From the NCBI GenBank assembly GCA_947085205.1, contig CAMTVO010000014.1, positions 17,946-81,945 of the forward strand: DNA of 64,000 bases, read 5' to 3'. Position numbers and translations under genes: made by a program. Source of the DNA: an uncultured Nitrospiraceae bacterium (GTDB lineage: Bacteria > Nitrospirota > Thermodesulfovibrionia > Thermodesulfovibrionales > Dissulfurispiraceae). The notes under the pieces were generated by a model that worked only from the letters and a program-made list of their open reading frames with translations, ran no database searches and was not told the origin of the DNA. Below are positions 1-59,965 of the stretch, in pieces. How positions within the stretch are numbered: the stretch's first letter is position 1; each line of letters begins with the position of its first letter.

Positions 1-762
1 ACAATAAAGGTGATGAGGGAACATATGGAAGTAGTCAGGAAAGCGATGGAAAAACAAAAAAACATTTCAAATCCCCCCTTATCCCCCTTTTCTAAACTCC
101 TAACTCCTAACTCTCAACTCTCAACTATAATTGGTGTCCATCTTGAAGGGCCTTTCTTGAACCCGTCCAAATGCGGCGCATTAAATGCAATAACATTCAT
201 AGAGCCTACAGAATACAATTTCAAAGAACTCATAGAAGGTTTTGAGGATGTAATCAAGATAATCACCATTGCACCTGAAATAAACGGAGCGACAAAACTT
301 ATAAAAAATACAACTGATATGGGAATCATCGCAAGCATGGGACATTCCGATGCAACATATTCTGAGGCTGAAGCAGGCTTTCATGCAGGCGCAAAAGGTA
401 TCACTCACATATTCAACGCCACGAGGGGCTTTCATCACAGAGAGCCCGGAATTGCCGGTTTCGGGCTTTTAAATAAGGACATTTATATCGAAGTCATTGC
501 AGACCCTTATCATCTGCACCAAAAGACCATTGAACTGATATTTAAAACAAAGAATCCTGACAGAATAATTATTGTCTCTGATTCGGTAAAAGAGGCAACA
601 CCATTCACCAAAAGTCAGGGAGTTATGGACACGCATGGCAAACTCTTAGGTGGCTGTATAACTATTGCAGAATCCTCTCAGAGGCTCATTGAAATGGGCT
701 TTGACGAGGATGTTATAATAAAATGTATAACAGAAAATCCTGAAAGGTATCTAAATCAGTAA
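1..762 (+). CDS. nagA: N-acetylglucosamine-6-phosphate deacetylase, C-terminal ~250 aa (5' end outside window)
   Basis: Frame open from nt 1. Amidohydrolase/NagA-type motifs IGVHLEGPF, GHSDATY, ITHIFNA, REPGIAG, IVSDS. Stop at 760-762. Carries a repeat-derived in-frame segment at nt 71-126. Confidence 0.8.
   Translation, partial: TIKVMREHMEVVRKAMEKQKNISNPPLSPFSKLLTPNSQLSTIIGVHLEGPFLNPSKCGALNAITFIEPTEYNFKELIEGFEDVIKIITIAPEINGATKLIKNTTDMGIIASMGHSDATYSEAEAGFHAGAKGITHIFNATRGFHHREPGIAGFGLLNKDIYIEVIADPYHLHQKTIELIFKTKNPDRIIIVSDSVKEATPFTKSQGVMDTHGKLLGGCITIAESSQRLIEMGFDEDVIIKCITENPERYLNQ
95..126. repeat. Heptamer array AACTCCT x2, AACTCTC x2 (+partial) inside the nagA CDS
   Basis: Tandem 7-nt periodicity read directly. 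Preceded by two C-run units (71-89). Confidence 0.85.
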
Positions 763-809
763 TGTGTAATGTGTAATGTGTAATGTGTGTAATGAGTGAT
801 GAGTAAAGA
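759..809. repeat. Heptamer array GTAATGT x4 plus degenerate units (GTAATGA, GTGATGA, GTAAAGA)
   Basis: Spans the nagA stop codon, the spacer and the start codon of the M48 protease gene. Confidence 0.9.
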
Positions 810-2292
810 GTTAAAAATAAAAAATTTACTGCCCGCAAGAAAAGAAATTCTGTTACTGCTTACTGCTTACTGCCTACTGCTCACTTTTTTTGGCTGTGCC
901 ATCAACCCTGTAACAGGACAGAGGGAGCTGATGTTCATATCCGAAAATCAGGAAATAGAGTTTGGTAAAAAGCTTTATCCAAATACCTTATGGGGTGACC
1001 TCGGCGGCGGAGGAGAATATAAAGACGAAAAACTAAAGACCTATTTAAAAGATATTGTCGTCAGAATTCACGGCGTTTCTCACAGACCGGGTCTGCCTGT
1101 TCAATTCGCAATCCAGAACAGTTCCGTTCCCAATGCATGGGCTATACCGGGATATGTGGTAATGACAAGAGGATTACTTGCAGCGCTTGATAGCGAGGCA
1201 GAATTCACATTCGTCATGGGGCATGAAATGGGACATGTATCTGCAAGGCATTCAGCAAGGCAGATAACCCGCGGGATGCTGCATCAAATAGGGCTTGGCG
1301 CTGCAGGCATTGCGCTGGAAGACAGGGAAGCCTCTGACATTGCATTAAGACTCGGCGCAGTGGGCAGCAGCCTCTTGCTCCTGAAATACAGCAGGGACGA
1401 TGAACTCCAAGCCGACAGGCTCGGTATCCAATACATGACGAATCTCGGATATAACCCGGAAAATGCTGTCAGCGCTCATAAAAATTTAGAGAGAGCATCC
1501 CATGAATATCTGAAATCTTTGGGCAAAAATGCAGAGGAACGTAGTTTCTTTGAAGACCTGCTCTCGACACACCCGAGGACAGCGGCGAGGATTGAAGAGA
1601 TCCAGAGCATTATAAATGAGATGAGACCGTTTAAAGTTACAGAAGATGGGACAAACAGAGAGCGTTTTAAGAATATGATTGCAGAACTGAAAAACACCAA
1701 CAGAATTTATACAGGATATTATGACAATGCTGTGAGGGCATTCGGAAAGAATAACATGGATGAGGCAGACCATCTCACATCAAAGGCAATAAAGGCAGAT
1801 GAAGGCCAGCCTCCATTCCATACGCTTAAAGGTTTCATAATGCTGAGGAAAAAAGACTATAATGAAGCGGAAAAGTATTTTAATGTTGCCCTAAGCATCG
1901 ATAAAGATTACGAGCCGGCTCTAAGGGGTATGGGCACAATCAGATATTTCAGGGGTGATTATTCAGAAGGCATAAGTTATCTGAAAAGAAGCATATCTCT
2001 TTTTCCGCAGGACATATCAGCCCACTACTTTTTAGGCATGAGTTATTACAAAATGAGAATGTACAAAACAGCAATACCGCATTTGAGGCTATTTGCTGAT
2101 GCACAGCCAAGACATCCCGAAATACACGGCATATTGGGCATATGCTATGAGAATATAAATGACCTTTATTCAGCCTACAATGAATATATTGCCCAACTTA
2201 AAGTCGCCCCGAACACTGAGATGGGAAGACACGCAGCATCAAGGGTAGCTGCTTTGAGACTCATCATCGAAGGTTCAAAGATAAGACGATAA
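799..2292 (+). CDS. M48-family zinc metalloprotease with C-terminal TPR repeats (BepA-like), probable lipoprotein
   Basis: HEMGH zinc motif. C-terminal TPR-like repeats (YNEAEKYFNVALSIDKDYEPA etc.). N-terminal signal ending LLTFFGC (lipobox-like). ATG 799 preferred over GTG 796. Confidence 0.8.
   Translation: MSKELKIKNLLPARKEILLLLTAYCLLLTFFGCAINPVTGQRELMFISENQEIEFGKKLYPNTLWGDLGGGGEYKDEKLKTYLKDIVVRIHGVSHRPGLPVQFAIQNSSVPNAWAIPGYVVMTRGLLAALDSEAEFTFVMGHEMGHVSARHSARQITRGMLHQIGLGAAGIALEDREASDIALRLGAVGSSLLLLKYSRDDELQADRLGIQYMTNLGYNPENAVSAHKNLERASHEYLKSLGKNAEERSFFEDLLSTHPRTAARIEEIQSIINEMRPFKVTEDGTNRERFKNMIAELKNTNRIYTGYYDNAVRAFGKNNMDEADHLTSKAIKADEGQPPFHTLKGFIMLRKKDYNEAEKYFNVALSIDKDYEPALRGMGTIRYFRGDYSEGISYLKRSISLFPQDISAHYFLGMSYYKMRMYKTAIPHLRLFADAQPRHPEIHGILGICYENINDLYSAYNEYIAQLKVAPNTEMGRHAASRVAALRLIIEGSKIRR
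850..884. repeat. Heptamer array (CTGTTAC, TGCTTAC x2, TGCCTAC, TGCTCAC) encoding the signal peptide of the M48 protease
   Basis: Five units. Translated as LLLLTAYCLLLT. Confidence 0.9.
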
Positions 2293-2293
2293 A

Positions 2294-5376: not shown

Positions 5377-7335
5377 TTACCCCTCAAACATCACTTTTCC
5401 CATATCCCTCGTATCATATCCTCCGAGGGATTCGACGGTAGCTCTGAATTCCTTGTTATTCCTTATGACGTCCAGTAATATCCTTATCATCTGCATATCC
5501 ATAAACTCTGCCGGAATTCCGATATCATAGCGCTCGCTGGCAACAGTGATAAAGTCGAGGCCGAGGGCCTTTGCAGAGGAATAGACTGCAAGTCCTGTAT
5601 CCGCAAGACCGGTGAGCACGGCTGATGCGACAGCCATATGTGTATATTCTTCCCTATCATATCCCTTGACCATATAGGGATTAATTCCAAGCTCCCTGAG
5701 ATGTTTATCAAGAAGCAGTCTCGTTCCCGAGCCTGACTGCCTGTTAATAAAAATCACATCATCCCTTATGAGGTCTTCAAAACCGTTGATATTCTTTGGA
5801 TTGCCTTTTTTTACAAGAAGCCCCTGCTGGCGATAAACAAGATTAACAAGAATAATCTTTCTGTCGGACAGCAATCTCTTGATAAACGGTATATTGTATT
5901 CCCCTGTCTGTTCATCCAACAGATGTGTTCCTGCAATATGCGCCTCTTTTCTCTTCAATGCCGTCAATCCGCCCATTGAGCCGACATGGGCTGATGACAG
6001 AGAAAATTCAGGATGGTTCTTCTTTATGGTATTTGCAAGGATGTCCAGTGTATTGTCATGGCTTCCTATGCATACGATAGTATTTTTAATCTCATTCTTA
6101 TTCCTCATCAGTTCTACTTCAACTTCAGTCCCTGCCTGTAAGCCTTCCGAGTTCACGGGAATTTTCAAAATACCGTCTGCCCTCACGAGGGACATAAGCA
6201 ATCCCGCTCCCCTGCCGACAGGAGTAGCAATATATTTATCATCGACAACTCCAACCTTTACCCTGATAAATTCATCCACACCCAATAGAGATGCAATCTG
6301 TCTTGAGATTTTAGCCTTTATCTTTTCATTTTCTTCCACAGCAACCCCCAATAGCCTTGCAATAACAGGCTTCACGAATAACTGGAATGTGAGATATGCT
6401 GAAACAGGATAGCCCGGAATGCCGAATACAGGCTTGTTATTAACAAAGCCTGCAATTAAGGGTTTGCCGGGTTTTATCGAAACACCGTTTATAATCACTT
6501 CTCCTAATTCCTTTATGGCTGTCAATGTATAGTCCTTTGAGCCTCTTCCTGCGCCTGCATTAATAAGAACAATATCTGATACCTTTGATGCCGCGCTTAT
6601 AGCCTTTTTAATTTCATCTAAATCATCTTTGACAATATTAAATCTTACAGCCTCTGCGCCGTATTCATTTGCAAGACCTGAAAACATCGATGAGTTGTAC
6701 TCTATTATCTCAGGAGGCTCAGGCGGCCTGTTTATTACAACATCAGGTTCGATAATCTCAGTGCCTGTCGGGATTACTGCAATCTTCGGCCTTTTCCTTG
6801 CAGATACTTCAATATGGCCGCTTGCGAGCATTGCTCCCATGTCTATTGGTCTTATTTTGTGGTTTTCGGAAATAATAAGCTCAGTTGCAACGATGTCCTC
6901 TCCGATTGTCCTTACATGCTGATACGGCGTAACAGGCTCATAAATCTCTATGCATTCCTCCTCTTGCCTCTCGCCTCTCGCCTCTCGCTTGATTATATTC
7001 ACATCTTCAATCATGATAACTGCATTGAAACCTTGAGGCATGGGGTCGCCTGTATCCACATACACAGTGTCGTATCCGATTTTCAGCATGTATGGAGATG
7101 TTTCTGATGCTGTGAATGTATCTGCAAATCTCACTGCATATCCGTCCATTGCAGCGGAGTGATAAAACGGCGATGAATACCTTGCAAATACAGGCTCTGC
7201 AGTTATACGGCCAAGGGATTCGGTAACATTTATAATCTCAGAAGGAAGGCGGTGCAGGCCTCTCTCATCAAAGTGATGAAAAAGGACTTTAATTGCTTCT
7301 TCGAGTGAAAGGCTGTCAAGGAATACAGATTTCAT
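5377..7335 (-). CDS. moeA: Molybdopterin molybdenumtransferase MoeA fused to a C-terminal periplasmic-binding-protein-like domain
   Basis: MoeA N-terminal and MoCF-binding regions (SPFYHSAAMDGYAV, PTGTEI, INAGAGRGSKDY, SIKPGKP). ~230-aa C-terminal PBP-like extension. Repeat-derived insert REARGERQEEE. Confidence 0.75.
   Translation of the reverse strand: MKSVFLDSLSLEEAIKVLFHHFDERGLHRLPSEIINVTESLGRITAEPVFARYSSPFYHSAAMDGYAVRFADTFTASETSPYMLKIGYDTVYVDTGDPMPQGFNAVIMIEDVNIIKREARGERQEEECIEIYEPVTPYQHVRTIGEDIVATELIISENHKIRPIDMGAMLASGHIEVSARKRPKIAVIPTGTEIIEPDVVINRPPEPPEIIEYNSSMFSGLANEYGAEAVRFNIVKDDLDEIKKAISAASKVSDIVLINAGAGRGSKDYTLTAIKELGEVIINGVSIKPGKPLIAGFVNNKPVFGIPGYPVSAYLTFQLFVKPVIARLLGVAVEENEKIKAKISRQIASLLGVDEFIRVKVGVVDDKYIATPVGRGAGLLMSLVRADGILKIPVNSEGLQAGTEVEVELMRNKNEIKNTIVCIGSHDNTLDILANTIKKNHPEFSLSSAHVGSMGGLTALKRKEAHIAGTHLLDEQTGEYNIPFIKRLLSDRKIILVNLVYRQQGLLVKKGNPKNINGFEDLIRDDVIFINRQSGSGTRLLLDKHLRELGINPYMVKGYDREEYTHMAVASAVLTGLADTGLAVYSSAKALGLDFITVASERYDIGIPAEFMDMQMIRILLDVIRNNKEFRATVESLGGYDTRDMGKVMFEG
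6957..6988. repeat. Heptamer array CTCTCGC x3 (+ CTCTTGC) inside moeA
   Basis: Read directly. Encodes REARGERQE on the minus strand. Confidence 0.85.
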
Positions 7336-9599: not shown

Positions 9600-9612
9600 A
9601 AATTAGCTTTTG

Positions 9613-9663
9613 GCTCATAGCTGATAGCTCATAGCAAAAAACTATGAACTATGAGCTATGAAC
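9613..9663. repeat. Inverted pair of heptamer arrays (GCTCATA-type vs CTATGAG-type), purM|nadC spacer
   Basis: Arms at 9613-9635 and 9642-9663, with an AAAAAA loop. The right arm covers the last nadC codons and the stop. Confidence 0.9.
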
Positions 9664-10485
9664 TGTCTTCATGCTTATATCAACGGCCATTACTGAATGG
9701 GTCAATGCGCCGATGGATATTATATCAACTCCTGTCTCAGCAATGCTTCTTATGTTTTCGAGATTTACATTTCCAGATGCCTCAAGGAGAGCCTTGCCTC
9801 TTGCGATTTTTACAGCCTCTTTCATGTCAGGGATGGACATATTATCAAGCATAATTACATCCGCTCCTGCATTCAGTGCCTCTTTTAATTCATCAAGGCT
9901 TTTTACTTCGACTTCTATCTTGAGGAGATGATGTGCCTTCTTTGCAAGTTCAACAGACTTTTTTACTCCTCCAGCAACCTTTATGTGGTTGTCCTTAATC
10001 AATACGCCGTCATAAAGTCCGAACCTGTGATTAACTCCTCCCCCCATCCTTACGCCATATTTTTCCATGAACCTCATTCCAGGAGTTGTCTTTCTCGTAT
10101 CAGCAATCTCAACCGGCAGACCGGATACCTTCTCCACATAAGCCTTTGTCATCGTAGCAATTCCTGATATGCGCTGGAGTATATTCAATGAAACTCTTTC
10201 TCCGGCAAGAAGACTTCTGCTGCTTCCGGAAATCTCCACTATTATATCGCCTTTTTTTACATGCGAGCCGTCATGGAAGAATTCATTGATAACAACATCA
10301 GGGTCTACGGCATTAAAAACTTCCCTCGCAAATGGCATTCCAGCAAGGATAAAGTCTTCCTTTGCCATAATCTGCGCCTTTGCCTTGCTGTCTTCGGGAA
10401 TAATGAGAAGGGATGTTATATCGCCGTGACCGATGTCTTCAAGTATCGCAAGGCGGATTGTCTCTTTTAATATTAAAAATTCCAC
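9649..10485 (-). CDS. nadC: Nicotinate-nucleotide pyrophosphorylase (quinolinate phosphoribosyltransferase)
   Basis: LEDIGHGDITS, ERVSLNILQR.SGIAT, DTRKTTPG.R, IMLDNM motifs. GTG start. The last codons and the stop lie in a repeat array. Confidence 0.9.
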   Translation of the reverse strand: MEFLILKETIRLAILEDIGHGDITSLLIIPEDSKAKAQIMAKEDFILAGMPFAREVFNAVDPDVVINEFFHDGSHVKKGDIIVEISGSSRSLLAGERVSLNILQRISGIATMTKAYVEKVSGLPVEIADTRKTTPGMRFMEKYGVRMGGGVNHRFGLYDGVLIKDNHIKVAGGVKKSVELAKKAHHLLKIEVEVKSLDELKEALNAGADVIMLDNMSIPDMKEAVKIARGKALLEASGNVNLENIRSIAETGVDIISIGALTHSVMAVDISMKTVHSS

Positions 10486-10972: not shown

Positions 10973-10990
10973 ATTTTACCCCCTTTAGTT

Positions 10991-11049
10991 CAGTAAGCAT
11001 TAAACAGTGAGCAGTTTTCGGCTGACTGCTTACTGCTTACTGCTTACTG
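10991..11049. repeat. Inverted pair of arrays (CAGTAAG/CAGTGAG vs CTGCTTA), spacer between the hypothetical gene and valS
   Basis: Arms at 10991-11014 and 11022-11049. The right arm covers the valS C-terminus and stop. Confidence 0.9.
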
Positions 11050-13873
11050 TCTTTAATAGTTTTATGTTCTCCTCTATCTTTTCTTTTTTGTGGACAAAGT
11101 CATCAAACTTTGCCTTCTCCTTTTCGACCACAACCCTTGGAGCATTCTTCAAAAAATCTTCATTTAGAAGCTTCTTGTTTAACGTTGCTATTGAATCATC
11201 TATTTTCGACTTCTCTTTCTGAAGCCTCTCCACTTCAGATTTTATATCCAGCAGACCCTCTATTGGAATGTATATCTCCATCTTATCCCTTACGGATACC
11301 GCCGAGCCTTTTTCTTTCCTAATATCAGCCCCGATATTTATCTCTTTGCAACGTGTCAATTTCATTATAGCAGTAAGATTGTTTTTCATAACATCTTCCA
11401 CTTCCTTTGAAGCGGTTTTTATACCTGCCCTCATTTCAAGAGATGGGGCGATATTCAACTCTCCCCTTATGCTCCTTATGCCGGTTATCGCACTTATTAT
11501 ATAGTCCATCTGTTCCTCAGCATCGGGATATTTAGGTAAATCTACCGGATATTGTGATATCATAATACTTTTGCTCTGCTCAAATACGGTATTCCACAAT
11601 TCTTCTGTAACATACGGCATAAATGGATGTAACAACTGAATGATCTTCTCAAGAACAAAGAACAAACAATTTATAACCGCCGCCTTTTCTTCGCTGCTTC
11701 CGTGATAAAGAACAGGCTTTGTAAACTCTATATACCAGTCGCAGAATTCATGCCACACAAACTGGTATATGCTGTTGGCCGCATCGTTGAACCTGTAGTT
11801 TCCAAGATTTCTGTTGACCTCTTCTGCTGTAAAAGCCAGTCTGCTCAGTATCCATCTGCCCGGAAGGTCTAAGTCCTTGTCATGCCCGTGCAGCGGCTGC
11901 TTTGCCCATAATTCTTCGTTATTCACTATGAATTTTGCGGCATTCCATAATTTATTTATGAAATGTCTGTACCCTTCGACCCTATCTTCGGAAAATCTCA
12001 CATCCCTTCCCTGAGCAGCAAATGCAGCAAGGGTAAACCTGAAGGCATCGGCGCCGTATTTATCTATCATTACGAGAGGGTCTATCACATTGCCTTTTGA
12101 CTTGGACATCTTATGTCCCTTTGAGTCACGAACAAGGGCATGGATATACACATCCCTGAAAGGAGCATCTTTCATTACCTTCAGTCCCATCATAATCATT
12201 CTTGCGACCCAGAAGAATAAAATATCAAAGCCTGTGACAAGAACACCCGTCGGATAAAATGTCTTTAAATCCTCTGTCTCTTGCGGCCATCCGAGAGTAG
12301 AAAACGGCCATAATGCAGATGAAAACCATGTATCAAGAACATCAGGGTCCCGGATGATATTTTTGCTGCCGCACTTAGGGCATTCCGTTAGCTCTTCCCT
12401 CTGACAAATCGGTTTTACTTTCTTTGATATCCTTATAATCTTTGAATTCCTGATTATTTCCTCATGGCTCATTCCCAGCTTTTTCAATTCTGAATATATA
12501 CCGCCGGTAGCCTTGATTCCCGCACGGAGCATTACAGGCTCAAAAAATATATGCTCTATTATTTCGCCTTGAGGAGGTGTACCGTCTTCTCCTTTGCAGT
12601 CAGGACAGCACCAGACAGGTATCTGGTGTCCCCACCATATCTGGCGTGATATGCACCAGTCCTTTATGTCTCTCATCCATGCAAAATAGTTGTTTTCCCA
12701 TGAATCAGGAATGAGCCTTATTGTTTTGTCCTGCACTGCCCTTACAGCCTCAGATGCAAGAGACTCTATTTTGACATACCACTGAATTGTAAGCAGAGGC
12801 TCTATTATGGTCTTGCATCTGTAGCAATGTCCCACAGAATGGAGGTATTTCTTATCGCCTTCAAGCAAATCAAGTTCTCTTAAATCCTCAACTATCTTTT
12901 TCCTGCAAATGTATCTGTCAAGGCCGCTGTATCTTTCTCCTGCTTCTGCAGACATGCGTCCGTCTTCAGAAATTACGCTGATTGATTTAAGCTTATGGCG
13001 TTTGCCGATTGCTTCGTCATTAAAATCGTGTGCAGGTGTAACCTTTACAGCGCCTGTTCCAAAAGCAGGATCAACAGCAGCATCTGCAATTACAGGAATT
13101 TTTCTGCCTGTCAAAGGCAAATCGAGGTTTTTACCGATAATATCTTTATATCTCTCGTCTTCAGGATGGACGGCAACCGCCGTATCACCGAGCATAGTCT
13201 CCGGTCTTGTGGTTGCAACAGTTATATACCCCCCCTCTATCCGAACAGGGGGGGTAAGAGGATATTTTATGCTGTAAAGTTTGCCTTCGATTTCTTCATA
13301 TTCCACTTCAAGGTCGGAAAGCGCAGTATGGCATCTCGGACACCAGTTAATTAGACGGTTATCCCTGTATACAAGCCCTTCCTCAAAAAGCCTTACAAAC
13401 ACTTCCCTTACGGCAGCGGATAATCCTTCATCAAGGGTGAACCGTTCTCTCGACCAGTCGCATGAAGCGCCTATTTTTTTTAGCTGGTGTATTATCTTTC
13501 CGCCGTATTCGGCCTTCCATTTCCAGACCCTTTCAATGAACGTCTCTCTTCCAAGTTTATGCCTGTCGATTCCTTCCTTTGAAAGCTCCCTCTCCACCAC
13601 ATTCTGTGTTGCTATTCCTGCATGGTCGGTTCCAGGGAGCCACAAGACTTTATGTCCAGACATCCTCTTCCATCGTGTAAGAATGTCCTGAATTGTGGCA
13701 TTGAGTGCATGACCCATGTGGAGGGAACCAGTAACATTGGGCGGCGGTATGACTATGCAGAACGGTGCTTTTGTGGCATTAGGATTCGGCTTAAAATATC
13801 CATTCTGCTCCCAAAAAACATACCACTTGTCTTCTATGTCTTCCGGACTGTAAGTTTTCTTTAGTTCAATCAT
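11030..13873 (-). CDS. valS: Valyl-tRNA synthetase
   Basis: Class I signatures PPPNVTGSLHMGH and KMSKSKGN, TTRPETM, C-terminal coiled coil. 947 aa, with an enlarged CxxC...CxxC insertion. Confidence 0.97.
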   Translation of the reverse strand: MIELKKTYSPEDIEDKWYVFWEQNGYFKPNPNATKAPFCIVIPPPNVTGSLHMGHALNATIQDILTRWKRMSGHKVLWLPGTDHAGIATQNVVERELSKEGIDRHKLGRETFIERVWKWKAEYGGKIIHQLKKIGASCDWSRERFTLDEGLSAAVREVFVRLFEEGLVYRDNRLINWCPRCHTALSDLEVEYEEIEGKLYSIKYPLTPPVRIEGGYITVATTRPETMLGDTAVAVHPEDERYKDIIGKNLDLPLTGRKIPVIADAAVDPAFGTGAVKVTPAHDFNDEAIGKRHKLKSISVISEDGRMSAEAGERYSGLDRYICRKKIVEDLRELDLLEGDKKYLHSVGHCYRCKTIIEPLLTIQWYVKIESLASEAVRAVQDKTIRLIPDSWENNYFAWMRDIKDWCISRQIWWGHQIPVWCCPDCKGEDGTPPQGEIIEHIFFEPVMLRAGIKATGGIYSELKKLGMSHEEIIRNSKIIRISKKVKPICQREELTECPKCGSKNIIRDPDVLDTWFSSALWPFSTLGWPQETEDLKTFYPTGVLVTGFDILFFWVARMIMMGLKVMKDAPFRDVYIHALVRDSKGHKMSKSKGNVIDPLVMIDKYGADAFRFTLAAFAAQGRDVRFSEDRVEGYRHFINKLWNAAKFIVNNEELWAKQPLHGHDKDLDLPGRWILSRLAFTAEEVNRNLGNYRFNDAANSIYQFVWHEFCDWYIEFTKPVLYHGSSEEKAAVINCLFFVLEKIIQLLHPFMPYVTEELWNTVFEQSKSIMISQYPVDLPKYPDAEEQMDYIISAITGIRSIRGELNIAPSLEMRAGIKTASKEVEDVMKNNLTAIMKLTRCKEINIGADIRKEKGSAVSVRDKMEIYIPIEGLLDIKSEVERLQKEKSKIDDSIATLNKKLLNEDFLKNAPRVVVEKEKAKFDDFVHKKEKIEENIKLLKTVSSKQ
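13227..13256. repeat. C7...G7 palindromic element inside valS
   Basis: TACCCCCCC-tctatccgaaca-GGGGGGGTA. Encodes LTPPVRIEGGY. Confidence 0.8.
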
Positions 13874-13887
13874 AGATGCTTAAAAGG

Positions 13888-13966
13888 GGCTATAGACGAT
13901 AGGCAAAAGGCAATAGGCATAAGACCACAATAATTGTTATCGCCTATCGCCCATTGCCTATTGCCT
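13888..13966. repeat. Inverted pair of AATAGGC-type arrays, valS|response-regulator spacer
   Basis: Arms at 13888-13920 and 13939-13966. Confidence 0.9.
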
Positions 13967-14920
13967 AATCTCTGAAGTAATCTTTTCTATCTCTTTTTTT
14001 ATCAGTGTCTCTGCAACTTCCGGGACAATTCTTTTTATTGCAGCATCTATTTCGCCGCGCAATGATCTCAACAGGTCTTTTATCACTTCTCTCGTTACAT
14101 CCTCAATAATGTCAGGGACGTTGCTTGATATTGCCTCTTTCACAGAATCCTGTATTGTTAAAGAAATATCGCTGCTTATTATACTGGAAACCTTTTCTTC
14201 AATGGTCTGTTTTATTATTTCGTATATCTCTTCCTTTGCAGGTAATTCTACTTCCTTTAACTCGTAACTCTTAACTCCTAACTCCTCACCGCCTTTCAAC
14301 GCCTCGGCGAGCTCTTCTGCAAATCCCTTTGTATCCTCAGATAAAGCAGCCTTAGCTTCATATTCCTCATCCGCCATTACCTCTTCGGCCTTTTCTTCTG
14401 CAATAGGAATTTCTTCGTCCCATTTCGGCTCTTCCCGAGTTTGCGGAGTAGCCGATACTGCTAATTCCACTGTAGCTTCAGGGGCATCTTCTGTTGCGGC
14501 CAACAACTCCTCTTCTATCGCCTCTTCCGGCTCCGTCTTCTTTGACTGCTCAAAGCCGACAAGCAGTGCTTTCACTTTGCTTATCAACTCCTGCGACTCG
14601 AATGGTTTAATGATAAAGTCGTCTGCAAAAACAGATTTTGCATATTCTTCGTCGAAAGGTTCAAAGGCACCTGCAAGTAAAATTACAGGAATAGCTGCAG
14701 TAGCCATATCATTTTTAATCTTTTCGCACAACTGATACCCGTTCAATTTAGGCATCTCGATGTCGGCAAGAATTATGTCGGGTTTAAAAGACTCCATTGC
14801 ATTTAATGCCTGCTCGCCGTCATTAAATGCCCTTATTTCGAAATTTTCCGACGTAAGGACAAGCTCAACCACCTTCTGTATGGTGAGGCTATCGTCTGCT
14901 AATAATAGTTTATAGGGCAT
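13958..14920 (-). CDS. Response regulator: receiver domain plus ~200-aa acidic, low-complexity/helical C-terminal region
   Basis: REC motifs LLADDS, ILADIEMPKLNG, IIKPF. The tail is rich in E/A/K and no output domain was recognised. Confidence 0.8.
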   Translation of the reverse strand: MPYKLLLADDSLTIQKVVELVLTSENFEIRAFNDGEQALNAMESFKPDIILADIEMPKLNGYQLCEKIKNDMATAAIPVILLAGAFEPFDEEYAKSVFADDFIIKPFESQELISKVKALLVGFEQSKKTEPEEAIEEELLAATEDAPEATVELAVSATPQTREEPKWDEEIPIAEEKAEEVMADEEYEAKAALSEDTKGFAEELAEALKGGEELGVKSYELKEVELPAKEEIYEIIKQTIEEKVSSIISSDISLTIQDSVKEAISSNVPDIIEDVTREVIKDLLRSLRGEIDAAIKRIVPEVAETLIKKEIEKITSEIRQ

Positions 14921-14934
14921 AATTAACCTCTTTC

Positions 14935-15039
14935 GTTATAGCGTTTATTGCGTTGAGCGTTATAGCGTAAAGCGTTGAGCAATATAAGGAAATAAATAAT
15001 TTACGCATAACTCTATAACTCTATAACTCTATAACGCTA
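14935..15039. repeat. Inverted pair of TATAGCGT/TATAACTC-type (8-mer) arrays
   Basis: Arms at 14935-14980 and 15003-15039. TATAACTC x3 is perfect. Confidence 0.9.
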
Positions 15040-15043
15040 CTTG

Positions 15044-15415
15044 TCAAGACTTTTTCTTACTCCTGTAGTCTTCTATAGCCTTTCTCAACGCATCGGCGCC
15101 CAGATTCGAACAGTGCATTTTCTGAGGCGGTAGACCTCCCAATTCCTGAGCCACCGCCTCCTTTGATATAGCAAGGGCATCATCGAGAGTCTTCCCTTTG
15201 ACCATTTCTGTAACCATGCTGCTTACTGCAATGGCAGCGCCGCATCCGAATGTCCTGAACTTTGCGTCTACTATCCTGTCGTTTTCGACCTTTATGAATA
15301 TCTGCATCGCATCCCCGCATATCGGGTTGCCTTCCATGCCGACGCCGTCTGCATCAGTGATTTCGCCCACATTTCTCGGATTCATAAAATGGTCCATTAC
15401 CTTTTCAGAATACAT
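15044..15415 (-). CDS. iscU: Fe-S cluster assembly scaffold (IscU/NifU N-terminal type)
   Basis: GNPICGD, FGCGAAIA and HCS cysteine motifs. 123 aa. Confidence 0.9.
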   Translation of the reverse strand: MYSEKVMDHFMNPRNVGEITDADGVGMEGNPICGDAMQIFIKVENDRIVDAKFRTFGCGAAIAVSSMVTEMVKGKTLDDALAISKEAVAQELGGLPPQKMHCSNLGADALRKAIEDYRSKKKS

Positions 15416-16639: not shown

Positions 16640-16656
16640 AATAGCTCCTTAAAATT

Positions 16657-16724
16657 AGGCGATAGGTCATAGACTATAGGCAATAGGTTTTTGTTTTTTA
16701 CCTATAGCCTATTGCCCATTGCCT
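16657..16724. repeat. Inverted pair of ATAGGC-type arrays, iscS|tusA spacer
   Basis: Arms at 16657-16687 and 16701-16724. The right arm covers the tusA C-terminus and stop. Confidence 0.9.
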
Positions 16725-16965
16725 GTTTTTTTACATAAAACTTGTAATAATCCTCATCCTCGTCCATCCCTATAAACTCATTTCCTGTCCTTTCGCACCA
16801 TTGTGGTATATCTTCGAGGGCGCCATCATAATCAGTAAGTATCTCAAGCACCTGTCCCTTCTCAAGCCCCTTTATCATCTCGTCCAGTTTGAGAAGATGC
16901 ATGGGACACATCATATAAACAATATCGGCGGTTACGTCCGCCTTTACATCATGAACGAATTTCAT
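16702..16965 (-). CDS. TusA/SirA-family sulfur carrier protein
   Basis: 87 aa with an MCPMHLLKL (CPxP-like) motif followed by ...GQVLEILTD. Sits between iscR and iscS. Confidence 0.7.
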   Translation of the reverse strand: MKFVHDVKADVTADIVYMMCPMHLLKLDEMIKGLEKGQVLEILTDYDGALEDIPQWCERTGNEFIGMDEDEDYYKFYVKKQAMGNRL

Positions 16966-17500: not shown

Positions 17501-17533
17501 AAAAAACAGGCGATAGGCTATTGCCTATCGCCT
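17501..17533 (-). terminator. Rho-independent terminator after mlaC
   Basis: 11-bp perfect stem AGGCGATAGGC/GCCTATCGCCT with a 4-nt loop, followed on the minus strand by GTTTTTT. It starts right after the mlaC stop. Confidence 0.75.
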
Positions 17534-18214
17534 CTACTTTGCCTTTTCCTCAAAAAGCTCTTCTTCCTGTTTGTCCTTCATCTTCTTGACAAGCTCTTCG
17601 TAGGAATCCCGCAGAATGATCTTATTAAATTGTGTCCTGTAATTGCTTACGAGGCTTACGCCTTCTATCACCACATCATATACTTCCCATTTGCCATTCT
17701 TTTTGAGGAGCCTGTAATGTATAGGTATTTCAACATTTCTCTTTGTGATTACCTTGCTTTTTACAACAGAGTATTCGCCCTCTATATCCTCACCCACATA
17801 CAAAATCTTTTCGTCTTCATAGGCCTCAATCTTTTTAATATATGACCTTTCAAGAAGGTCGGCATATAACGGCACAAACTCTTTTCTTTCCTCTGGCGTC
17901 CTTTTTCTCCAATGAAGGGCGAGGGACCTCTTTGCCATTTCCTCAAAATCAAATCTCTCGGAAATAGTCTTGCGGATTGCAGTCCTTCGCTCCTTTGTTT
18001 TTTCCGGCTTCTTCAGTTCCTTGTTTCTTAAGATATCAAGAACCTTATCAACGGTCTGCTTTACCTGATTTGTAGGCTCACCAGCATAGGCATCAGAAGC
18101 AGTGAATAGTGAATAGTGAATAGTGAACAGCAGAAGCATAACGAGTAACGAGTAATGAGTAACAAGTTTTTTGAAATCTGAAATCTGAAATCTGAAATCT
18201 GAAATTTTTCCCAT
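17534..18214 (-). CDS. mlaC: MlaC/Ttg2D-family periplasmic lipid-binding protein
   Basis: Tol-tolerance family pattern (RRTAIRKTISERFDFEEMAKRSLALHWRK...ERKEF). Signal peptide ends AYA|G. SD GAGAGG before ATG 18214. Confidence 0.8.
   Translation of the reverse strand: MGKISDFRFQISDFKKLVTHYSLLVMLLLFTIHYSLFTASDAYAGEPTNQVKQTVDKVLDILRNKELKKPEKTKERRTAIRKTISERFDFEEMAKRSLALHWRKRTPEERKEFVPLYADLLERSYIKKIEAYEDEKILYVGEDIEGEYSVVKSKVITKRNVEIPIHYRLLKKNGKWEVYDVVIEGVSLVSNYRTQFNKIILRDSYEELVKKMKDKQEEELFEEKAK
18100..18205. repeat. Three consecutive heptamer arrays (TAGTGAA x3-4; GTAACGA-type x4; CTGAAAT x5) in the mlaC 5' coding region
   Basis: Arrays at 18100-18130, 18137-18166 and 18171-18205. Confidence 0.9.
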
Positions 18215-21787: not shown

Positions 21788-21826
21788 GCTCATGGCTCAT
21801 AGTTTTATAGTTTTTTGCTATGAGCC
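21788..21826. repeat. Inverted GCTCATG/GCTCATA vs GCTATGAGCC arms, mlaE|pyrD spacer
   Basis: Arms at 21788-21802 and 21817-21826. The right arm covers the pyrD stop. Confidence 0.8.
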
Positions 21827-22756: not shown

Positions 22757-23622
22757 TACTCCAACACTCCATCACTCCATACAATGTCTTCTATATCAAA
22801 GACCGGCCCCTCTTTACATACCCTTTTATAAGTAAACAGCGAATGGTGAGCGGTGAGCAGTTGAGATTCGTTTTTATTACTGCTTCCTGCTTCCTGCTCA
22901 CTGCTTACCGTCTTCACCACACATCCCAGACATGCACCGACTCCGCATGCCATGTGTTCCTCCAGAGAAACATAACACTTTATATCTTTGTCTGCGACAA
23001 CTTTGGAAAGTTCTTTCAGCATTGGTGTAGGGCCGCAAGCATAAATCGGTAATGCGTAATGCGTAATGCGTGATGGGTTAAGAAAATCGCTTAAAGAATC
23101 TGTTATCAAACCCTTCTTGCCTTCAGAGCCGTCATCCGTTGCTATAAACAATTCCTTTGAAAATGTTTTTGCCTCATTTAGCATTACCAGTTCTTGTTTA
23201 TTCCTTGCGCCATAAAAAAGATATGCCTTGCTTTTAAATTTCTCCAGAAGATGCAATAAAGAGGCAATACCAATTCCGCCGGCAACCGCTATGAAATCCC
23301 CATGAGGTTCCGGATAGCTGTTACCGAGCGGCCCGATTACATTGATTACATCGCCGCCTTTAAGATTAGATAAACATGATGTGCCTTTCCCCCTAATCCT
23401 GTAAAGAAACCGGAGCGTGTTATCTTCATATCCGAAAATACTAAATGGTCTTTTTAAGAGAGGGTCGTAAGTGTCGCCTGCCTGAAGCATATAAAATTGT
23501 CCCGGCTCCGGAATCTTTACAGTAGACAACGGACTAAGGCTTAATAATTTGAAGCGCTTGTTTAAAGAGATATTGTCGGTTACATCTGCTTTGAAATATT
23601 TATTAGACAAAGCTGATCTCAA
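22756..23622 (-). CDS. pyrK: Dihydroorotate dehydrogenase electron-transfer subunit (FAD/2Fe-2S)
   Basis: RPFSI FAD motif, GGIGIA NAD-type motif, C-terminal CGVGACLGC...C cluster motif. TTG start. Two repeat-derived in-frame inserts. Confidence 0.85.
22845..22909. repeat. Inverted pair of arrays (GGTGAGC x2 vs CTGCTTC/CTGCTCA units) inside the pyrK CDS
   Basis: Arms at 22845-22860 and 22880-22909, with a 19-nt loop. Confidence 0.85.
23049..23080. repeat. Heptamer array GTAATGC x3 (+GTGATGG) inside the pyrK CDS
   Basis: Read directly. Encodes [10 protein letters not shown] on the minus strand. Confidence 0.85.
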
Positions 23623-30837: not shown

Positions 30838-30839
30838 CG

Positions 30840-50368: not shown

Positions 50369-50440
50369 TATAGCGTTTTTACAAATTCTAACATTTTATC
50401 TCTTTCAACTCAACGCTATAACTCTATAACGCTATAACGC
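50367..50440. repeat. TATAACGC/TATAACTC array with a short inverted partner, fliA|flhG spacer
   Basis: Left arm 50367-50377. Right array 50412-50440. Confidence 0.75.
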
Positions 50441-50453
50441 CTCACGCTGTGCA

Positions 50454-56215: not shown

Positions 56216-56223
56216 ACCATTAG

Positions 56224-56299
56224 TTTATAGTTCATAGCTATCTTTATAGTGTTTATTTTTATCTTTACCATGAGCAATGAGCCATCAGCCATGAGCTAT
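56224..56299. repeat. Inverted CATAGCT/CATGAGC-type arrays, fliR|fliQ spacer
   Basis: Arms at 56224-56249 and 56268-56299. Confidence 0.8.
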
Positions 56300-56302
56300 T
56301 AT

Positions 56303-56572: not shown

Positions 56573-57663
56573 CTGACGAACCCTCCGATAAGCGAACCTA
56601 TCAATAAATCCCATCCGTCCACAAGTACGAACAGGAGCAATTTAAAGGGCATGGAAATCATAATGGGCGGAAGCATCATCATACCCATCGAAAGAAGGAT
56701 ACTCGCTACAATCATATCGATTACAAGAAATGGAAGAAAAATAAGAAAGCCTATTTCGAATGCCCTTTTCAGTTCTCCTATGGAGAATGCCGGAATAACA
56801 ACCCTCATTGGAAGATCCATCGGTGTTGCAGGCCTCTCAAGCTTCGACATCCTTAAAAAAAGCGCAAGGTCTTTTTCCCTCGTCTGCTTCAGCATGAACT
56901 CCTTCAAGGGGACTCCGGCCCTGTTAAGCGCCTCCTCAGCATTTATCTGCTTTTTTGTATAAGGCTGGTAGGCATCGGTGTAGATTCTGTCTACAACCGG
57001 AGACATGATAAAAAGGGTAATAAAAAGCGACAGGCCTATTATTACCTGTGTGGGAGGAACCTGCGGTGTTCCGAGCGCCTGCCTAAGAAACGAGAGCACA
57101 ACCACTATCCTTGTAAAACATGTAGTCATAACAAGAATTGCAGGCAGTATGGAAATCAGCGTAAGAAACAAAAGGAGTTCGAGCGGAGTCGTTAATCCCA
57201 AAAAGCTGCCGCCCGCAGGCGGAGGCGGAGCAGGAGCGGCAAAAGAGAAAGAAGGCAATAGGCAATAGGCGATAGGCAGAAAAGTAACGAGTAACGAGTA
57301 CCGGGTAACGAGTTTTTTCAAATTTTGAATCTTTGATTTAAAATCTTTTATTCCTGACTCCTGACTCCTGACTCCTAACTCTTGCTTTAAAGCTTCTTCC
57401 ACGTCCGATGGGTTAGGCTTGCTGAGAAGGGATATGCTTTCATCCGCAACGCCCAATACAAGATATTCTTTTAAGACCTTGACTATTGCAACTCCCTTTT
57501 TAGGACCAAAAGGCTGGTATTGAATAATTTCTATCATTCCCTTTTGGGGTAATATCCTCTGTTTCAAAAATCTCAGAAGCAGATACAGACCCCCTAAAAC
57601 TATCAAAAGTGCAAGTGTAACTTTTATTAATTCAATGCCCAAGTTTTCCTCCCAATACTCCAT
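56569..57663 (-). CDS. fliP: FliO-like domain fused in frame to flagellar export gate protein FliP
   Basis: aa 1-~95: single TM helix plus a FliO-like segment (GMIEIIQYQPFGPKKGVAIVKVLKEYLVLGV). aa ~115-364: FliP (signal-like LVTFLPIAYCLLPSFSFA, then TCFTRIVVVLSFLRQALG, PPTQV, MLPP). No stop codon between the two parts. Confidence 0.85.
   Translation of the reverse strand: MEYWEENLGIELIKVTLALLIVLGGLYLLLRFLKQRILPQKGMIEIIQYQPFGPKKGVAIVKVLKEYLVLGVADESISLLSKPNPSDVEEALKQELGVRSQESGIKDFKSKIQNLKKLVTRYSLLVTFLPIAYCLLPSFSFAAPAPPPPAGGSFLGLTTPLELLLFLTLISILPAILVMTTCFTRIVVVLSFLRQALGTPQVPPTQVIIGLSLFITLFIMSPVVDRIYTDAYQPYTKKQINAEEALNRAGVPLKEFMLKQTREKDLALFLRMSKLERPATPMDLPMRVVIPAFSIGELKRAFEIGFLIFLPFLVIDMIVASILLSMGMMMLPPIMISMPFKLLLFVLVDGWDLLIGSLIGGFVR
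57253..57381. repeat. Three arrays (AGGCAAT-type x4; GTAACGA-type x4; CTGACTC x3 + CTAACTC) forming the FliO-FliP junction
   Basis: Arrays at 57253-57280, 57284-57312 and 57354-57381. Confidence 0.9.
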
Positions 57664-58003: not shown

Positions 58004-58020
58004 TTTATTCCTCCAATTTG

Positions 58021-58096
58021 GCTGTTAGCTCATTATTCATCGCTCATGGCTTAAAGTTTTTTATACTCTTTTTTTTGCTATGAGCTATGAGCTATG
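58021..58096. repeat. Inverted GCTCAT-type vs GCTATGA-type arrays, fliN|fliM spacer
   Basis: Arms at 58021-58050 and 58077-58096. The right arm contains the fliM stop. Confidence 0.85.
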
Positions 58097-59054
58097 TTAC
58101 CTTTGTTATTTTTAATGCATACGAGCCTTTATAAATGCCAAACCTGCCTTTAAACTTCGGCGTTTCCTCGGCAAGTATATCTATATCCTCATCCACCCTT
58201 TTATCGAGAGTTATTACATCACCGACTTTCAAATCGATTACATCCTGAACAGTAACCTTTGAGGCGCCGAGATTGCCTGTCAAGATGAGCGGAATCCCTC
58301 TCAGCCTTTCCTTCAGTCTCTCGAGCCATTTTATGTCCAACTCATCCCTGTCTGCGGAAAATGCGCTGTAAAGTTTTTCTTTAATAGGCTCTACAGTGCC
58401 GTATGGAATACAAAGAAACGCCCTGCACTGCTTGCCTTCTATTTCAAGCACAAATTCAACCTTTATCACGACATCAACCGGTGTCACGATAGTCACGAAC
58501 TGCGGGTTCATCTCAGAGCGTACATATGTAGGAACTATCGGATAGACAGGTTTCCATGCCTCTTCCATATCGCTGAAAAACATCATTACGACCTTGTATA
58601 TTATCTTCTGCTCTATGGGCGTAAACTCCCTTCCCTCAGGCTTGTAATAGCTTTTACCGGTACCGCCAAAGAAGAATTCGATAAGACTGAAAATCATCGG
58701 GGCATCAAACACCAGAAGACCGAATCCCCTAAGGGGCTCCATCTTGAATACATTAATGCTCGAAGGGAAAGGAACTCCACGCATAAAATCATAGAATTTC
58801 GTGATACTGACATTCACATTCGTTACATCAACCATGCGCCTGACAGCGGCAGACAGGGAAAGGCGGAAATTCCTGGCAAGCCTTTCATTAGCGATGTCCA
58901 GCGAAGGCATCCTGCCCCTGACAATCTTTTCCTGTCCGGTAAAGTCATAGGGTTTTACGCCGGAGACCTCTTCTACTTTTTCTGTCTCTACAGCGCCTTC
59001 AGATATGCCTTTTAGCAGCGCATCAACTTCTTCTTGCGAAAGGATATCTTCCAA
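58092..59054 (-). CDS. fliM: Flagellar motor switch protein FliM
   Basis: N-terminal CheY-P binding motif LSQEEVDALL and a FliM middle domain. TTG start with SD GGAGG 6 nt upstream. Confidence 0.95.
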   Translation of the reverse strand: MEDILSQEEVDALLKGISEGAVETEKVEEVSGVKPYDFTGQEKIVRGRMPSLDIANERLARNFRLSLSAAVRRMVDVTNVNVSITKFYDFMRGVPFPSSINVFKMEPLRGFGLLVFDAPMIFSLIEFFFGGTGKSYYKPEGREFTPIEQKIIYKVVMMFFSDMEEAWKPVYPIVPTYVRSEMNPQFVTIVTPVDVVIKVEFVLEIEGKQCRAFLCIPYGTVEPIKEKLYSAFSADRDELDIKWLERLKERLRGIPLILTGNLGASKVTVQDVIDLKVGDVITLDKRVDEDIDILAEETPKFKGRFGIYKGSYALKITKVT

Positions 59055-59070
59055 TTAAACCTCCAAATCA

Positions 59071-59141
59071 GGCTATAGGCAAGAGGCCATAGGCTATAGG
59101 GAGTGTTAAGAAATTCTCTTCTTGCCTATTGCCAATTGCCT
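59071..59141. repeat. Inverted ATAGGC-type arrays, fliM|fliL spacer
   Basis: Arms at 59071-59100 and 59121-59141. Confidence 0.85.
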
Positions 59142-59145
59142 GTTC

Positions 59146-59782: not shown

Positions 59783-59833
59783 TCAAAAACTTGACGGTTA
59801 GATGCCTATGTCAAGGCATCTAACCGTCAAGTT
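59783..59833 (-). terminator. Rho-independent terminator after flgE
   Basis: Perfect 20-bp stem (AACTTGACGGTTAGATGCCT / AGGCATCTAACCGTCAAGTT) with a 6-nt loop. On the minus strand its last two stem T residues run directly into three further T residues (five consecutive T in total). Confidence 0.75.
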
Positions 59834-59888
59834 ATCAACTATGAACAGTGAGTTCTAAATTAAATTTAACCTAAGGCAAAAAGACTGG

Positions 59889-59911
59889 ATTCCCCGATTA
59901 AATCGGGGAAT
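59889..59911. other. Perfect 10-11 bp hairpin ATTCCCCGAT(T)/(A)ATCGGGGAAT in the flgE-fliL spacer
   Basis: Inverted repeat seen directly. On the minus strand it is followed by ccagtcTTTTT. Confidence 0.4.
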
Positions 59912-59965
59912 GACAAAGTATAAGAATCGCTCAATTTAGGTTTAAGCCATAAGCTATGAGCTATT

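Follow-up and report, generated by a model that had tools for sequence, protein, structure and literature searches.

Period-7 arrays in the window

The window, a 64,000-nt stretch of contig CAMTVO010000014.1 from an uncultured Nitrospiraceae bacterium (assembly GCA_947085205.1, positions 17,946 to 81,945), holds mla, isc, pyr and flagellar genes, nearly all on its minus strand, and about 45 tandem arrays with a period of 7 or 8 nt (Tandem Repeats Finder). These arrays, many of them translated and others paired into stem-loops, are composed of three to five units of 7 nt, at times 8 nt, whose words are related and form a limited set.

Period 7 alone is enriched. A strict self-match scan at its strictest setting returned 13 arrays of period 7 and otherwise none or one for periods 4-12. 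A looser setting returned 19 period-7 arrays, compared with a mean of 0.07 (maximum 1) in 100 dinucleotide-preserving shuffles, and none of periods 5, 6 or 9 in the window. An earlier note on this DNA had named the shuffled control as a check on repeat density, and the words that it listed (CAGTGAA, CAGTAAG, GTAACGA, CTGAAAT, CTGACTG, AATAGGC, CTATGAG and GTAATGT, with the 8-mers TATAACTC/GC) are present where it had placed them.

The choice of words is not random. Across the window (W) and the related loci and genomes compared (labelled L001-L024), 89 arrays comprise 55 canonical words. Within the window, an identical word is shared by nine unlinked array pairs (0.56 expected, maximum 4 in 500 trials), and 35 array pairs match within one mismatch (10 expected); identical words also turn up again across related genomes. 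Hairpins of the CTCATAG, AGGCAAT, GCGTTATA and CAGTAAG types occur four to five times each in 64 kb. All-against-all BLAST of the elements detected likeness confined to the arms, covering 15-39 nt, and none across arm-loop-arm; the recurring unit is therefore the word or array and not a longer element.

An assembly artefact was rejected, since arrays occupy orthologous positions in independent metagenome-assembled genomes (MAGs). A GTNA/TNAC core shared among the words was dropped because its enrichment, counted by hand, was unconvincing.

Location and polarity of the arrays

The 33 clear arrays divide as follows: 13 are in the first 180 nt of an open reading frame (ORF), eight are ORF-internal, four span a stop codon, one spans a start codon and seven are purely intergenic. 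Three of the eight ORF-internal arrays form the FliP leader within a fused fliO-fliP ORF. Gene boundaries or N-termini thus hold 28 of the 33 arrays, and internal permissive sites hold five. The earlier note described the arrays as intergenic and as filling almost every spacer, having taken 5' coding sequence for spacer; about 16 of the 25 spacers of at least 30 nt carry arrays, the remainder being plain or containing ordinary hairpins, and about two-thirds of the clear arrays are inside ORFs, with many translated as signal peptides, tails, linkers or loops.

The two arms of an inverted pair differ in polarity. In 19 inverted pairs with unambiguous transcription direction, the 5' arm carries stops in all three frames in 12 and the 3' arm in two, and the purine-richer arm is the 5' arm in 14. 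These purine-rich 5' arms often supply the gene's own stop codon. Because 7 and 3 are coprime, an array of at least three units is read as all seven trinucleotides of the cyclic word whatever the frame. If one of these is a stop, translation ends in every frame, and a T-rich, stop-free word encodes the same hydrophobic heptapeptide in every frame. By this arithmetic one arm suits gene ends, while the complementary arm can be absorbed as the leader core of the next gene.

The co-directional minus-strand genes extend over ~60 kb (2294-63973). The plus strand has a GC skew of -0.138 and an AT skew of -0.094, giving a G- and A-rich coding strand as expected for a leading strand.

Inverted pairs and intercistronic stem-loops

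Arrays and hairpins at gene boundaries, with folding energies and z scores where calculated, are:

9603..9664 (-), hairpin (CTCATAG)n/(CTATGAG)n between nadC and purM, with the nadC stop in the 5' arm; -32.1 kcal/mol, z -5.6
10975..11052 (-), hairpin (CAGTAAG)n/CTTACTG-type, the 5' arm forming the last ValRS codons and stop; z -5.4
13885..13975 (-), hairpin (AGGCAAT/AGGCGAT)n/(ATTGCCT)n over a response-regulator (RR) stop, upstream of valS; -42 kcal/mol, z -5.2
14925..15045 (-), 8-mer arrays (GTTATAGA)x4 and a distal CGCTATAAC-type arm between iscU and RR; array scan
16650..16728 (-), hairpin AGGCAAT-type/CCTATTG-type, the 5' arm forming the TusA tail QAMGNRL and stop; z -6.4
17506..17535 (-), AGGCGATAGGC-AAT-AGCCTATCGCCT with a T-run behind it, between mlaC and the iscR promoter; fold and terminator scan
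21793..21827 (-), short hairpin GGCTCATAG...CTATGAGCC over the pyrD stop; fold
24095..24175 (-), hairpin (GAAGTTG)n/(ACTTC..)n lying wholly in the spacer upstream of greA; fold
36372..36392 (-), 8-mer array TAATGGAG in a 32-nt spacer; array scan
50369..50453 (-), (GCGTTATA)n 8-mer arrays and a CGCTATA arm that adjoins the sigma-28 gene start; z -5.6
56216..56302 (-), (GCTCATG/GCTGATG)n in the fliQ|fliR spacer, plus a weak AGCTATGA arm; z -1.0
58004..58100 (-), hairpin (CATAGCT)n/GCCATGAGC-type between fliM and fliN, with the fliM stop in the 5' arm; z -2.8
59055..59145 (-), hairpin GGCAAT-type/CCTATAGCC-type between fliL and fliM; fold
59943..59964 (-), (ATAGCTC)n directly 3' of the hook-protein gene stop; array scan

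Six spacers (9595-9673, 10968-11054, 13869-13982, 16635-16726, 17451-17558 and 50364-50478) fold with z scores of -5.0 to -6.4. The five facing array pairs cited in the earlier note all fold, three of them strongly (z -5.2 to -6.4 at 9595-9673, 13869-13982 and 16635-16726) and two more weakly (57999-58116, z -2.8; 59050-59170, z -1.4). Its expectation of imperfect stem-loops between cistrons of single operons was borne out, with stable ones at fliL|fliM|fliN, fliQ|fliR, tusA|iscS and iscU|RR, with the genes confirmed by Pfam. Complementary arms are enriched over chance, another point raised there: eight of the 33 arrays have an inverted partner at p<=0.01, where ~0.3 would be expected, and a further four have one at p<=0.055. 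Pairing does not describe most arrays, as had been claimed, the paired share being only about one third to one half. The cassettes of MlaC, FlgA, FlgJ, FliP and the M48 protein are unstructured (z >= 0), folding no better than shuffles.

A scan of 9000-25000 identified a single array hairpin with a G+C-rich stem and a T-run, a canonical intrinsic terminator at 17533-17508, just before the conserved iscR promoter. By eye, the remaining array hairpins possess no T-run. An Rfam gathering search gave no match. Integron attC sites, which are variable palindromes found 3' of cassettes, were rejected, given the location in core operons and the missing RYYYAAC/GTTRRRY core.

Other palindromes are also present. 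Perfect ordinary hairpins, GGAAGTGCAGGA-ATA-TCCTGCACTTCC and ATCCACC-TTAT-GGTGGAT, follow two chemotaxis-cluster gene stops at 41910-41945 and 42750-42775 (-), showing that stem-loops in this genome are not all built from heptamers. The 328-nt spacer upstream of fliL (59638-59965, -) comprises several long near-perfect non-heptamer palindromes, including a 20-bp stem AACTTGACGGTTAGATGCCT...AGGCATCTAACCGTCAAGTT and CCCCGTTAGAAA...TTTCTAACGGGG, and folds as a whole at -114 kcal/mol (z -9.0).

Translated arrays

Arrays that are wholly or partly within coding sequence are:

754..825 (+), arrays of GTAATGT/GTAATGA that cover the ORF 10-762 stop and the M48 lipoprotein gene start; array scan
853..885 (+), (TTACTGC)x4.7 encoding LLLLTAYCLLLT, the hydrophobic (H) region of the M48/TPR lipoprotein, followed by the lipobox FFGC; array scan, Pfam
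6960..6988 (-), (CGAGAGG)x4 in frame in a MoeA loop, encoding REARGERQ; array scan, translation
14258..14286 (-), (GGAGTTA)x4 in frame in the response-regulator linker; translation
18098..18205 (-), ATTTCAG x5, TTACTCG x3 and TTCACTA x4, forming the MlaC N-terminus and signal peptide; z +2.7
19545..19627 (-), (GTCAGCA)x4 and (TACTGTC)x4 encoding MKCQQSAVRSQQSKK-IFLFLLSTVYCLLST of an OEP/TolC-like protein, an imperfect hairpin; z -3.5
22752..22915 (-), an inverted-array hairpin of 69 nt inserted in frame into the PyrK Fe-S loop, and an 8-mer-coded C-terminal tail; alignment
23044..23075 (-), (CATTACG)x4 in PyrK encoding SRITHYA; orthologous variant-word arrays in L001, L002, L020 and L024
29566..29640 (-), (GCAGTCA)x4 and (AACTCCG)x3, the N-terminal region of an M23-domain FlgJ-like protein; translation, Pfam
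30693..30838 (-), long-range hairpin from the flgH|flgI spacer to the FlgI leader; z -6.2, also calculated as -46 kcal/mol, z -5.7
31519..31551 (-), (ACTGTTC)x4.7 encoding LLFTVHCSLFTV, the FlgH lipoprotein H-region, with lipobox LIGC; array scan, Pfam
32219..32318 (-), (GAGCGTC)n and (TTACTGC)x4.7, the N-region and H-region (LLLTAYCLLLT) of FlgA; array scan, Pfam
57250..57381 (-), (GAGTCAG)x4, (TTACTCG)x3 and (ATTGCCT)x3 at the FliO-FliP junction, encoding KKLVTRYSLLVTFLPIAYCLLPSFSFA; translation, Pfam

An array encodes the H-region in seven of eight recognisable signal peptides, namely those of FlgA, FlgH, FlgI, FliP, MlaC, the OEP/TolC-like protein and the M48/TPR lipoprotein. By inspection, the only further Sec-type leader in the window, in ORF 41973-42734, is array-free. 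The array-coded leaders retain conserved cleavage sites or lipoboxes: the M48/TPR leader reads LLLLTAYCLLLTFFGC, the FlgH leader MIRTILLFTVHCSLFTVLIGC carries its lipobox, and the FlgA, FlgI and FliP leaders read LLLTAYCLLLT...SYA|Q, ...LLFTINCSLFTVVHA|ERIKD and KKLVTRYSLLVTFLPIAYCLLPSFSFA|AP, respectively. Since their cleavage regions align with those of relatives whose leaders are ordinary, the arrays must be translated. The three direct arrays of MlaC are not self-complementary.

The flgH|flgI hairpin connects both roles. Its 5' arm (CAGTGAA-type) lies in the spacer, its 3' arm (TTCACTG) is the core of the FlgI signal peptide, and its loop holds the ribosome-binding site and start codon.

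In PyrK, the inverted array pair adds 23 residues between the third and fourth Fe-S cysteines, and Pfam covers only half of the Fe-S domain model there. At the FliO-FliP junction, fliO and fliP form one 364-codon ORF (56569-57663, -) with a stop-free junction of three arrays; a TTG at the KKLVT... position could start FliP separately, and arrays may have overwritten the fliO stop.

Two small coding candidates lie in apparent gaps. A 75-codon csrA-like ORF (24673-24900, -), below the 80-aa ORF cut-off, falls in what looks like a 286-nt spacer immediately before fliW (24221-24655). Upstream of flgF, a gap of 417 nt (33843-34259, -) contains a possible small ORF, MADDDGIRELYRVAGIRG..., with GCGTTATAGCG-family words and an AT-rich period-7/12 tract at 33865-33895.

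Distribution and turnover among relatives

A FlgI search identified 20 loci in GTDB genomes, all from uncultured Nitrospirota/Thermodesulfovibrionales MAGs, at 69-89% identity, and the OEP protein retrieved 80 metagenome loci. The metagenome scan returned no strain-level relative, its top match having 84% amino-acid identity; the closest usable genome pair is L002/L021, 96.8% identical. The closest relatives (L001, L002, L003, L006, L008, L009, L020, L021 and L024) carry 1-3.4 period-7 arrays per 10 kb, and in more distant relatives such arrays are essentially absent. A search with a synthetic FTVHCSL-repeat peptide matched short 'hypothetical proteins' recorded from Oscillatoriales, Desulfobacteraceae, Panacibacter and eukaryotic assemblies, which indicates that (TTCACTG)n-like arrays exist well outside this lineage and get miscalled as genes. 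These matches are short proteins called across long arrays and are uninformative on signal peptides.

Words change at fixed positions. In the FlgI leader, W and L001 have TTCACTG, L002, L008 and L019 have ACGCATT, L003 and L020 have TCTGTTA, L006 has TTACTCG and L009 has a TCACTTCCC-type word. The flgH|flgI architecture recurs with other words in L001, L002, L009 and L020 (z -3.3 to -7.4; ~0 in array-free relatives). W and L001 share the word CATTACG in the SRITHYA array of PyrK, where L020 has CATCACG and L002 has CCCATTA. The array is as long as the matching stretch of array-free relatives; such word change at constant length is concerted evolution of the units. At iscU|RR, the 8-mer array of W grew in place from a seed, GTTATAGCATTATAGAG, that L021 and L024 retain.

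Arrays and hairpins are also gained and lost. The TolC and MlaC leaders of L021, which is the nearest relative over the mla-isc region, are ordinary, so that the arrays of W there are derived. L021 possesses iscS|iscU hairpins missing in W, uses different words in its tusA|iscS and RR|valS hairpins, and ends TusA with ...RKTVQ where W has QAMGNRL. The tusA|iscS spacer holds a hairpin in three of four relatives, with differing words. By alignment, the PyrK insertion of W is missing in L002, L021, L001 and L022; other lineage-specific in-frame hairpin insertions occur in PyrK of L001, L006, L009 and L020.

Two other repeat types were observed in relatives. The FlgJ N-terminus of L001 (11137-11260) contains a second palindromic type of in-frame insertion made of C-runs and G-runs (CCCCCCCTAATCCCCCCCTTGGTAAGGGGGGGCAAGGGGGGG, encoding PPNPPLGKGGQGG), and PyrK of L009 has a similar C-run/G-run insertion (PPFPPLLKGGEGG). 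The FlgA N-terminus of L006 (8096-8400) is a higher-order repeat of a 42-nt unit, five copies each with (CATCACG)x3, translated as SRITHHASRSLED x5 ahead of the FlgA leader.

Length differences between close genomes involve whole units or whole palindromes. Upstream of greA, L002 and L021 are separated by an indel of 21 nt, equal to three units; two further indels between them, of 28 and 41 nt, are palindromic. Between L003 and L020, 89% identical, the FlgJ N-terminus varies by 36 nt of array, and another indel, of 61 nt, is an entire hairpin of (TAGCCAG)n, loop and (CTGGCTA)n. The 61-nt hairpin indel, the 28- and 41-nt palindromic indels, the dispersed word families with several hairpins per type, and in-frame ORF insertions recalling Rickettsia palindromic elements would suit non-autonomous mobile palindromes (REPIN/MITE-like), moved in trans by an enzyme encoded elsewhere, such as a RAYT/IS200-type Y1 transposase. 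We consider this unlikely: likeness stays inside the arms, 89 arrays use 55 distinct words, many arrays are unpaired, neither target-site duplications nor a conserved terminal tag were seen, and the 64-kb window contains no transposase gene.

The same differences bear on phase variation. A unit not divisible by three, located in the leader-coding regions of surface and flagellar proteins and in 13 cases within 180 nt of the start codon, could act as a contingency locus, with gain or loss of one 7-nt unit shifting the frame and switching envelope and flagellar proteins on or off. The documented precedent is Neisseria opa, where the CTCTT unit, likewise not a multiple of three, encodes a hydrophobic leader; opa arrays, however, are long and vary at ~1e-3 per generation (PMC3960869), whereas arrays here have just three to five units. 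No frame-shifting copy-number difference was seen among the MAGs compared, where orthologues are all in frame and the 21- and 36-nt differences preserve the frame, and the same arrays occur in the housekeeping enzymes PyrK and MoeA. Phase switching is therefore highly improbable as their role.

Strand symmetry of the stems

The stem-loops themselves may be selected RNA elements that stabilise upstream mRNA, attenuate transcription or insulate translation, with heptamers merely building the stems. Strong stems, with z to -6.4, sit exactly at stop codons within operons, in a fixed stop-hairpin-Shine-Dalgarno (SD) slot, and their 5' arms supply frame-independent stops; one is a true terminator. 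The arms covary across genomes at flgH|flgI, with array-free relatives near z 0, and the tusA|iscS hairpin is present in three of four relatives despite different words.

Selection on mRNA would be expected to yield more G.U than A.C mismatches on the sense strand. This was not seen: the ratio is 14:13 in ungapped stems. Over 25 hairpins, G.U pairs number 42 on the sense and 34 on the antisense strand, and the sense strand forms the more stable duplex in 13 and the antisense strand in 12. The complementarity is thus strand-symmetric, which fits a DNA-level origin and is compatible with an RNA-level effect too. About half or more of the arrays are unpaired, hairpins also occur in the middle of the pyrK coding sequence, their presence varies between close genomes at the iscS|iscU spacer and the TolC and MlaC genes, only one in the 9000-25000 stretch scanned has a U-tract, and Rfam offers no match. 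We accordingly regard selected RNA elements as a rather doubtful account of the arrays. Of the RNA-level roles proposed in the earlier note (stabilisation and attenuation), the stem-loops are real, and no evidence favours an RNA-level role over DNA-level complementarity.

Comparison with known repeat systems

Short tandemly repeated repetitive (STRR) sequences of heterocystous cyanobacteria use the words CCCCAGT, TTGGTCA and CAACAGT, none of which forms a tandem dimer in the window. In full-text literature searches, no paper connecting repeats of this kind with Nitrospirae or Thermodesulfovibrionia was found. The heptamer is the commonest unit of long simple sequence repeats (LSSRs) in many bacteria (Mrazek 2007, as summarised in the repeat passages of PMC4679880). 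According to the same passages, Microcystis contains many different repeating heptamers, as does the window, and Cyanothece strains differ by indels in 7-nt steps. The cyanobacterial STRR and LSSR share with our arrays the tandem 7-nt unit, a patchy distribution by lineage and a location mostly outside constrained sequence. They differ in phylum, the host of the window belonging to Nitrospirota/Thermodesulfovibrionales. Two features of the window, the systematic pairing of inverted arrays at stop codons and the regular translation of arrays into signal peptides, go unmentioned in the relevant passages of PMC4679880 and PMC2700814.

TAACTGA direct repeats occur in marine Beggiatoaceae, cyanobacteria and Bacteroidetes (MacGregor 2015, PMC4679880). 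As described in parts of that paper, the sets hold 2-6 copies, stop all three frames in forward orientation and overlap upstream stops, as the window arrays do; in reverse orientation they are tolerated at protein peripheries or termini, and they are suspected of horizontal or mobile behaviour. A single word dominates that system, with inverted pairing in 1 of 170 sets, whereas the window has dozens of words and frequent inverted pairs. TAACTGA sets mostly end within a few nt of the start, usually without an SD, and window hairpins end 12-18 nt before it, usually with an SD of the GGAGG type between. TAACTGA itself is present as two single copies and no tandem in the 64 kb.

Geobacter metallireducens carries tandem 7-9-mers paired on opposite strands, proposed as binding sites of global regulators (Aklujkar 2009, PMC2700814), and a GGACCGG x4 heptamer element at 49 inter- and intragenic sites. 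The passages concerned describe three to five tandem units of variable spacing, mostly as opposite-strand pairs, and so resemble the window; each Geobacter class has one conserved, BLAST-aligned consensus, compared with the many words here, and these passages are silent on stop codons and signal peptides. GGACCGG does not occur in the window, and the Geobacter consensus words are not among the 55 canonical words, GTTGCTYN, TCTCCGTS and MTYCTGA not having been searched directly. Together with the Microcystis heptamers, these pairs, as they appear in the parts of PMC2700814 and PMC4679880 concerned, make the earlier statement that no described system combines tandem arrays with inverted pairing too strong. 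Its choice of STRR and REP/BIME (repetitive extragenic palindrome/bacterial interspersed mosaic element) sequences as analogues is reasonable.

Protein binding has been suggested for such repeats, by S1, Csp or CsrA in Beggiatoaceae (passages of PMC4679880) and by global regulators in Geobacter (passages of PMC2700814). The window arrays could likewise be multivalent platforms for a DNA- or RNA-binding protein, given a restricted vocabulary recurring across genomes and the presence of csrA and fliW. Such platforms are very unlikely to explain them, as the word variety is too large for one binding specificity, arrays lie on either strand and in coding regions under translational constraint, and a normal SD follows the hairpins, unlike at TAACTGA repeats.

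REP, BIME and REPIN elements resemble the hairpins as short imperfect palindromes at gene 3' ends or between cistrons, in dispersed families (passages of PMC3116915 and PMC3733652), and in the window such palindromes at gene 3' ends fold with z -5 to -6.4 in six spacers. According to the same sources, REPs lie outside genes, share a conserved sequence of 20-40 nt marked by a GTAG or CGTC tag, and are associated with a RAYT (REP-associated tyrosine transposase) gene. The window arms are tandem heptamers of many words and carry no tag; GTAG precedes only two elements, a conserved 20-40 nt consensus is missing, and 21 of the 33 arrays lie inside ORFs and are thus not strictly extragenic. No RAYT gene was found within the 64-kb window, which is all of this genome at hand.

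Rickettsia palindromic elements, reportedly described by Ogata et al. in 2000, are said to be 100-150 bp long, to fall into conserved sequence families and to be inserted in frame and translated. Like the PyrK insertion, they are in-frame palindromic repeat DNA at tolerant positions. The window elements are shorter (60-100 nt), consist of heptamer words and concentrate at N-termini and gene boundaries.

Origin of the arrays

The explanation that we favour, with roughly even confidence, is that the arrays are lineage-specific, self-renewing repeat DNA and not a dedicated regulatory device. Arrays would arise and change length by whole units, presumably through replication slippage, and the units inside one array would evolve in concert. 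Single arrays and whole inverted-pair hairpins would be gained or lost as single indels. Arms would be kept complementary strand-symmetrically, possibly by intrastrand template switching or register-shifted hairpin realignment at the DNA level.

Purifying selection would then leave arrays only at low-constraint sites: spacers, last codons with their stop, signal-peptide cores, linkers and surface loops. In compact operons, survival only at low constraint leads to a pile-up at cistron boundaries. Stop-bearing purine-rich words would end up as the 5' arm at gene ends, and their T-rich complements would be tolerated as H-regions. Paired arrays in mRNA would form stable stem-loops at or over the stop, which would probably work in the manner of REP/BIME elements by blocking 3' exonucleases or terminating transcription in part. 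REPs function as mRNA 3' stabilisers or terminators, and by this analogy similar effects of the stem-loops on mRNA are likely.

Several observations weigh against this explanation. Two complementary arms are kept at flgH|flgI in every array-bearing genome, with five different word pairs; this looks like selection for pairing, which DNA-level arm homogenisation would give too. The slot order is very regular (stop codon, hairpin, 12-18 nt with an SD, start). Slippage that is purely local and starts from random seeds would not predict a vocabulary that is both restricted and common to the clade; this hints at copying between loci or at a word-specific factor. Slippage and template switching are themselves inferred, no event having been caught directly.

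A bolder possibility is a clade-specific copy-and-write process that would install arrays preferentially at cistron boundaries. In these bacteria, secretion signals would then routinely come from repeat DNA, which would also organise operon mRNA. The process would operate by templated patch replacement, or through an unknown enzyme or word-specific factor, and would deliver cassettes of modular form, combining a stop in any frame, a hairpin and a preformed signal peptide whose hydrophilic part comes from the purine-rich arm and whose hydrophobic part comes from the pyrimidine-rich arm. We consider such a process distinctly improbable.

Implications

The repeat class is already known from cyanobacteria, Beggiatoa and Geobacter, and the arrays of the window are an unusual variant of it. 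They are distinguished by a vocabulary of many words, by hairpins placed systematically at stop codons and, most of all, by signal-peptide cores that are routinely built from repeat DNA.

Heptanucleotide repeat biology is thereby extended to Nitrospirota. The window provides a clean natural case of translated repeat DNA, in seven of eight signal-peptide cores, including those of the flagellar L-ring, P-ring, FlgA and FliP, and in the hairpin of the PyrK Fe-S loop. For gene callers and signal-peptide predictors applied to these MAGs, this is a practical warning. The lineage also offers a tractable system for the old question of why 7 nt is favoured in bacterial long SSRs. The 7/3 logic explains why the arrays settle at gene ends, and it may hold for the cyanobacterial and Beggiatoa repeats as well.

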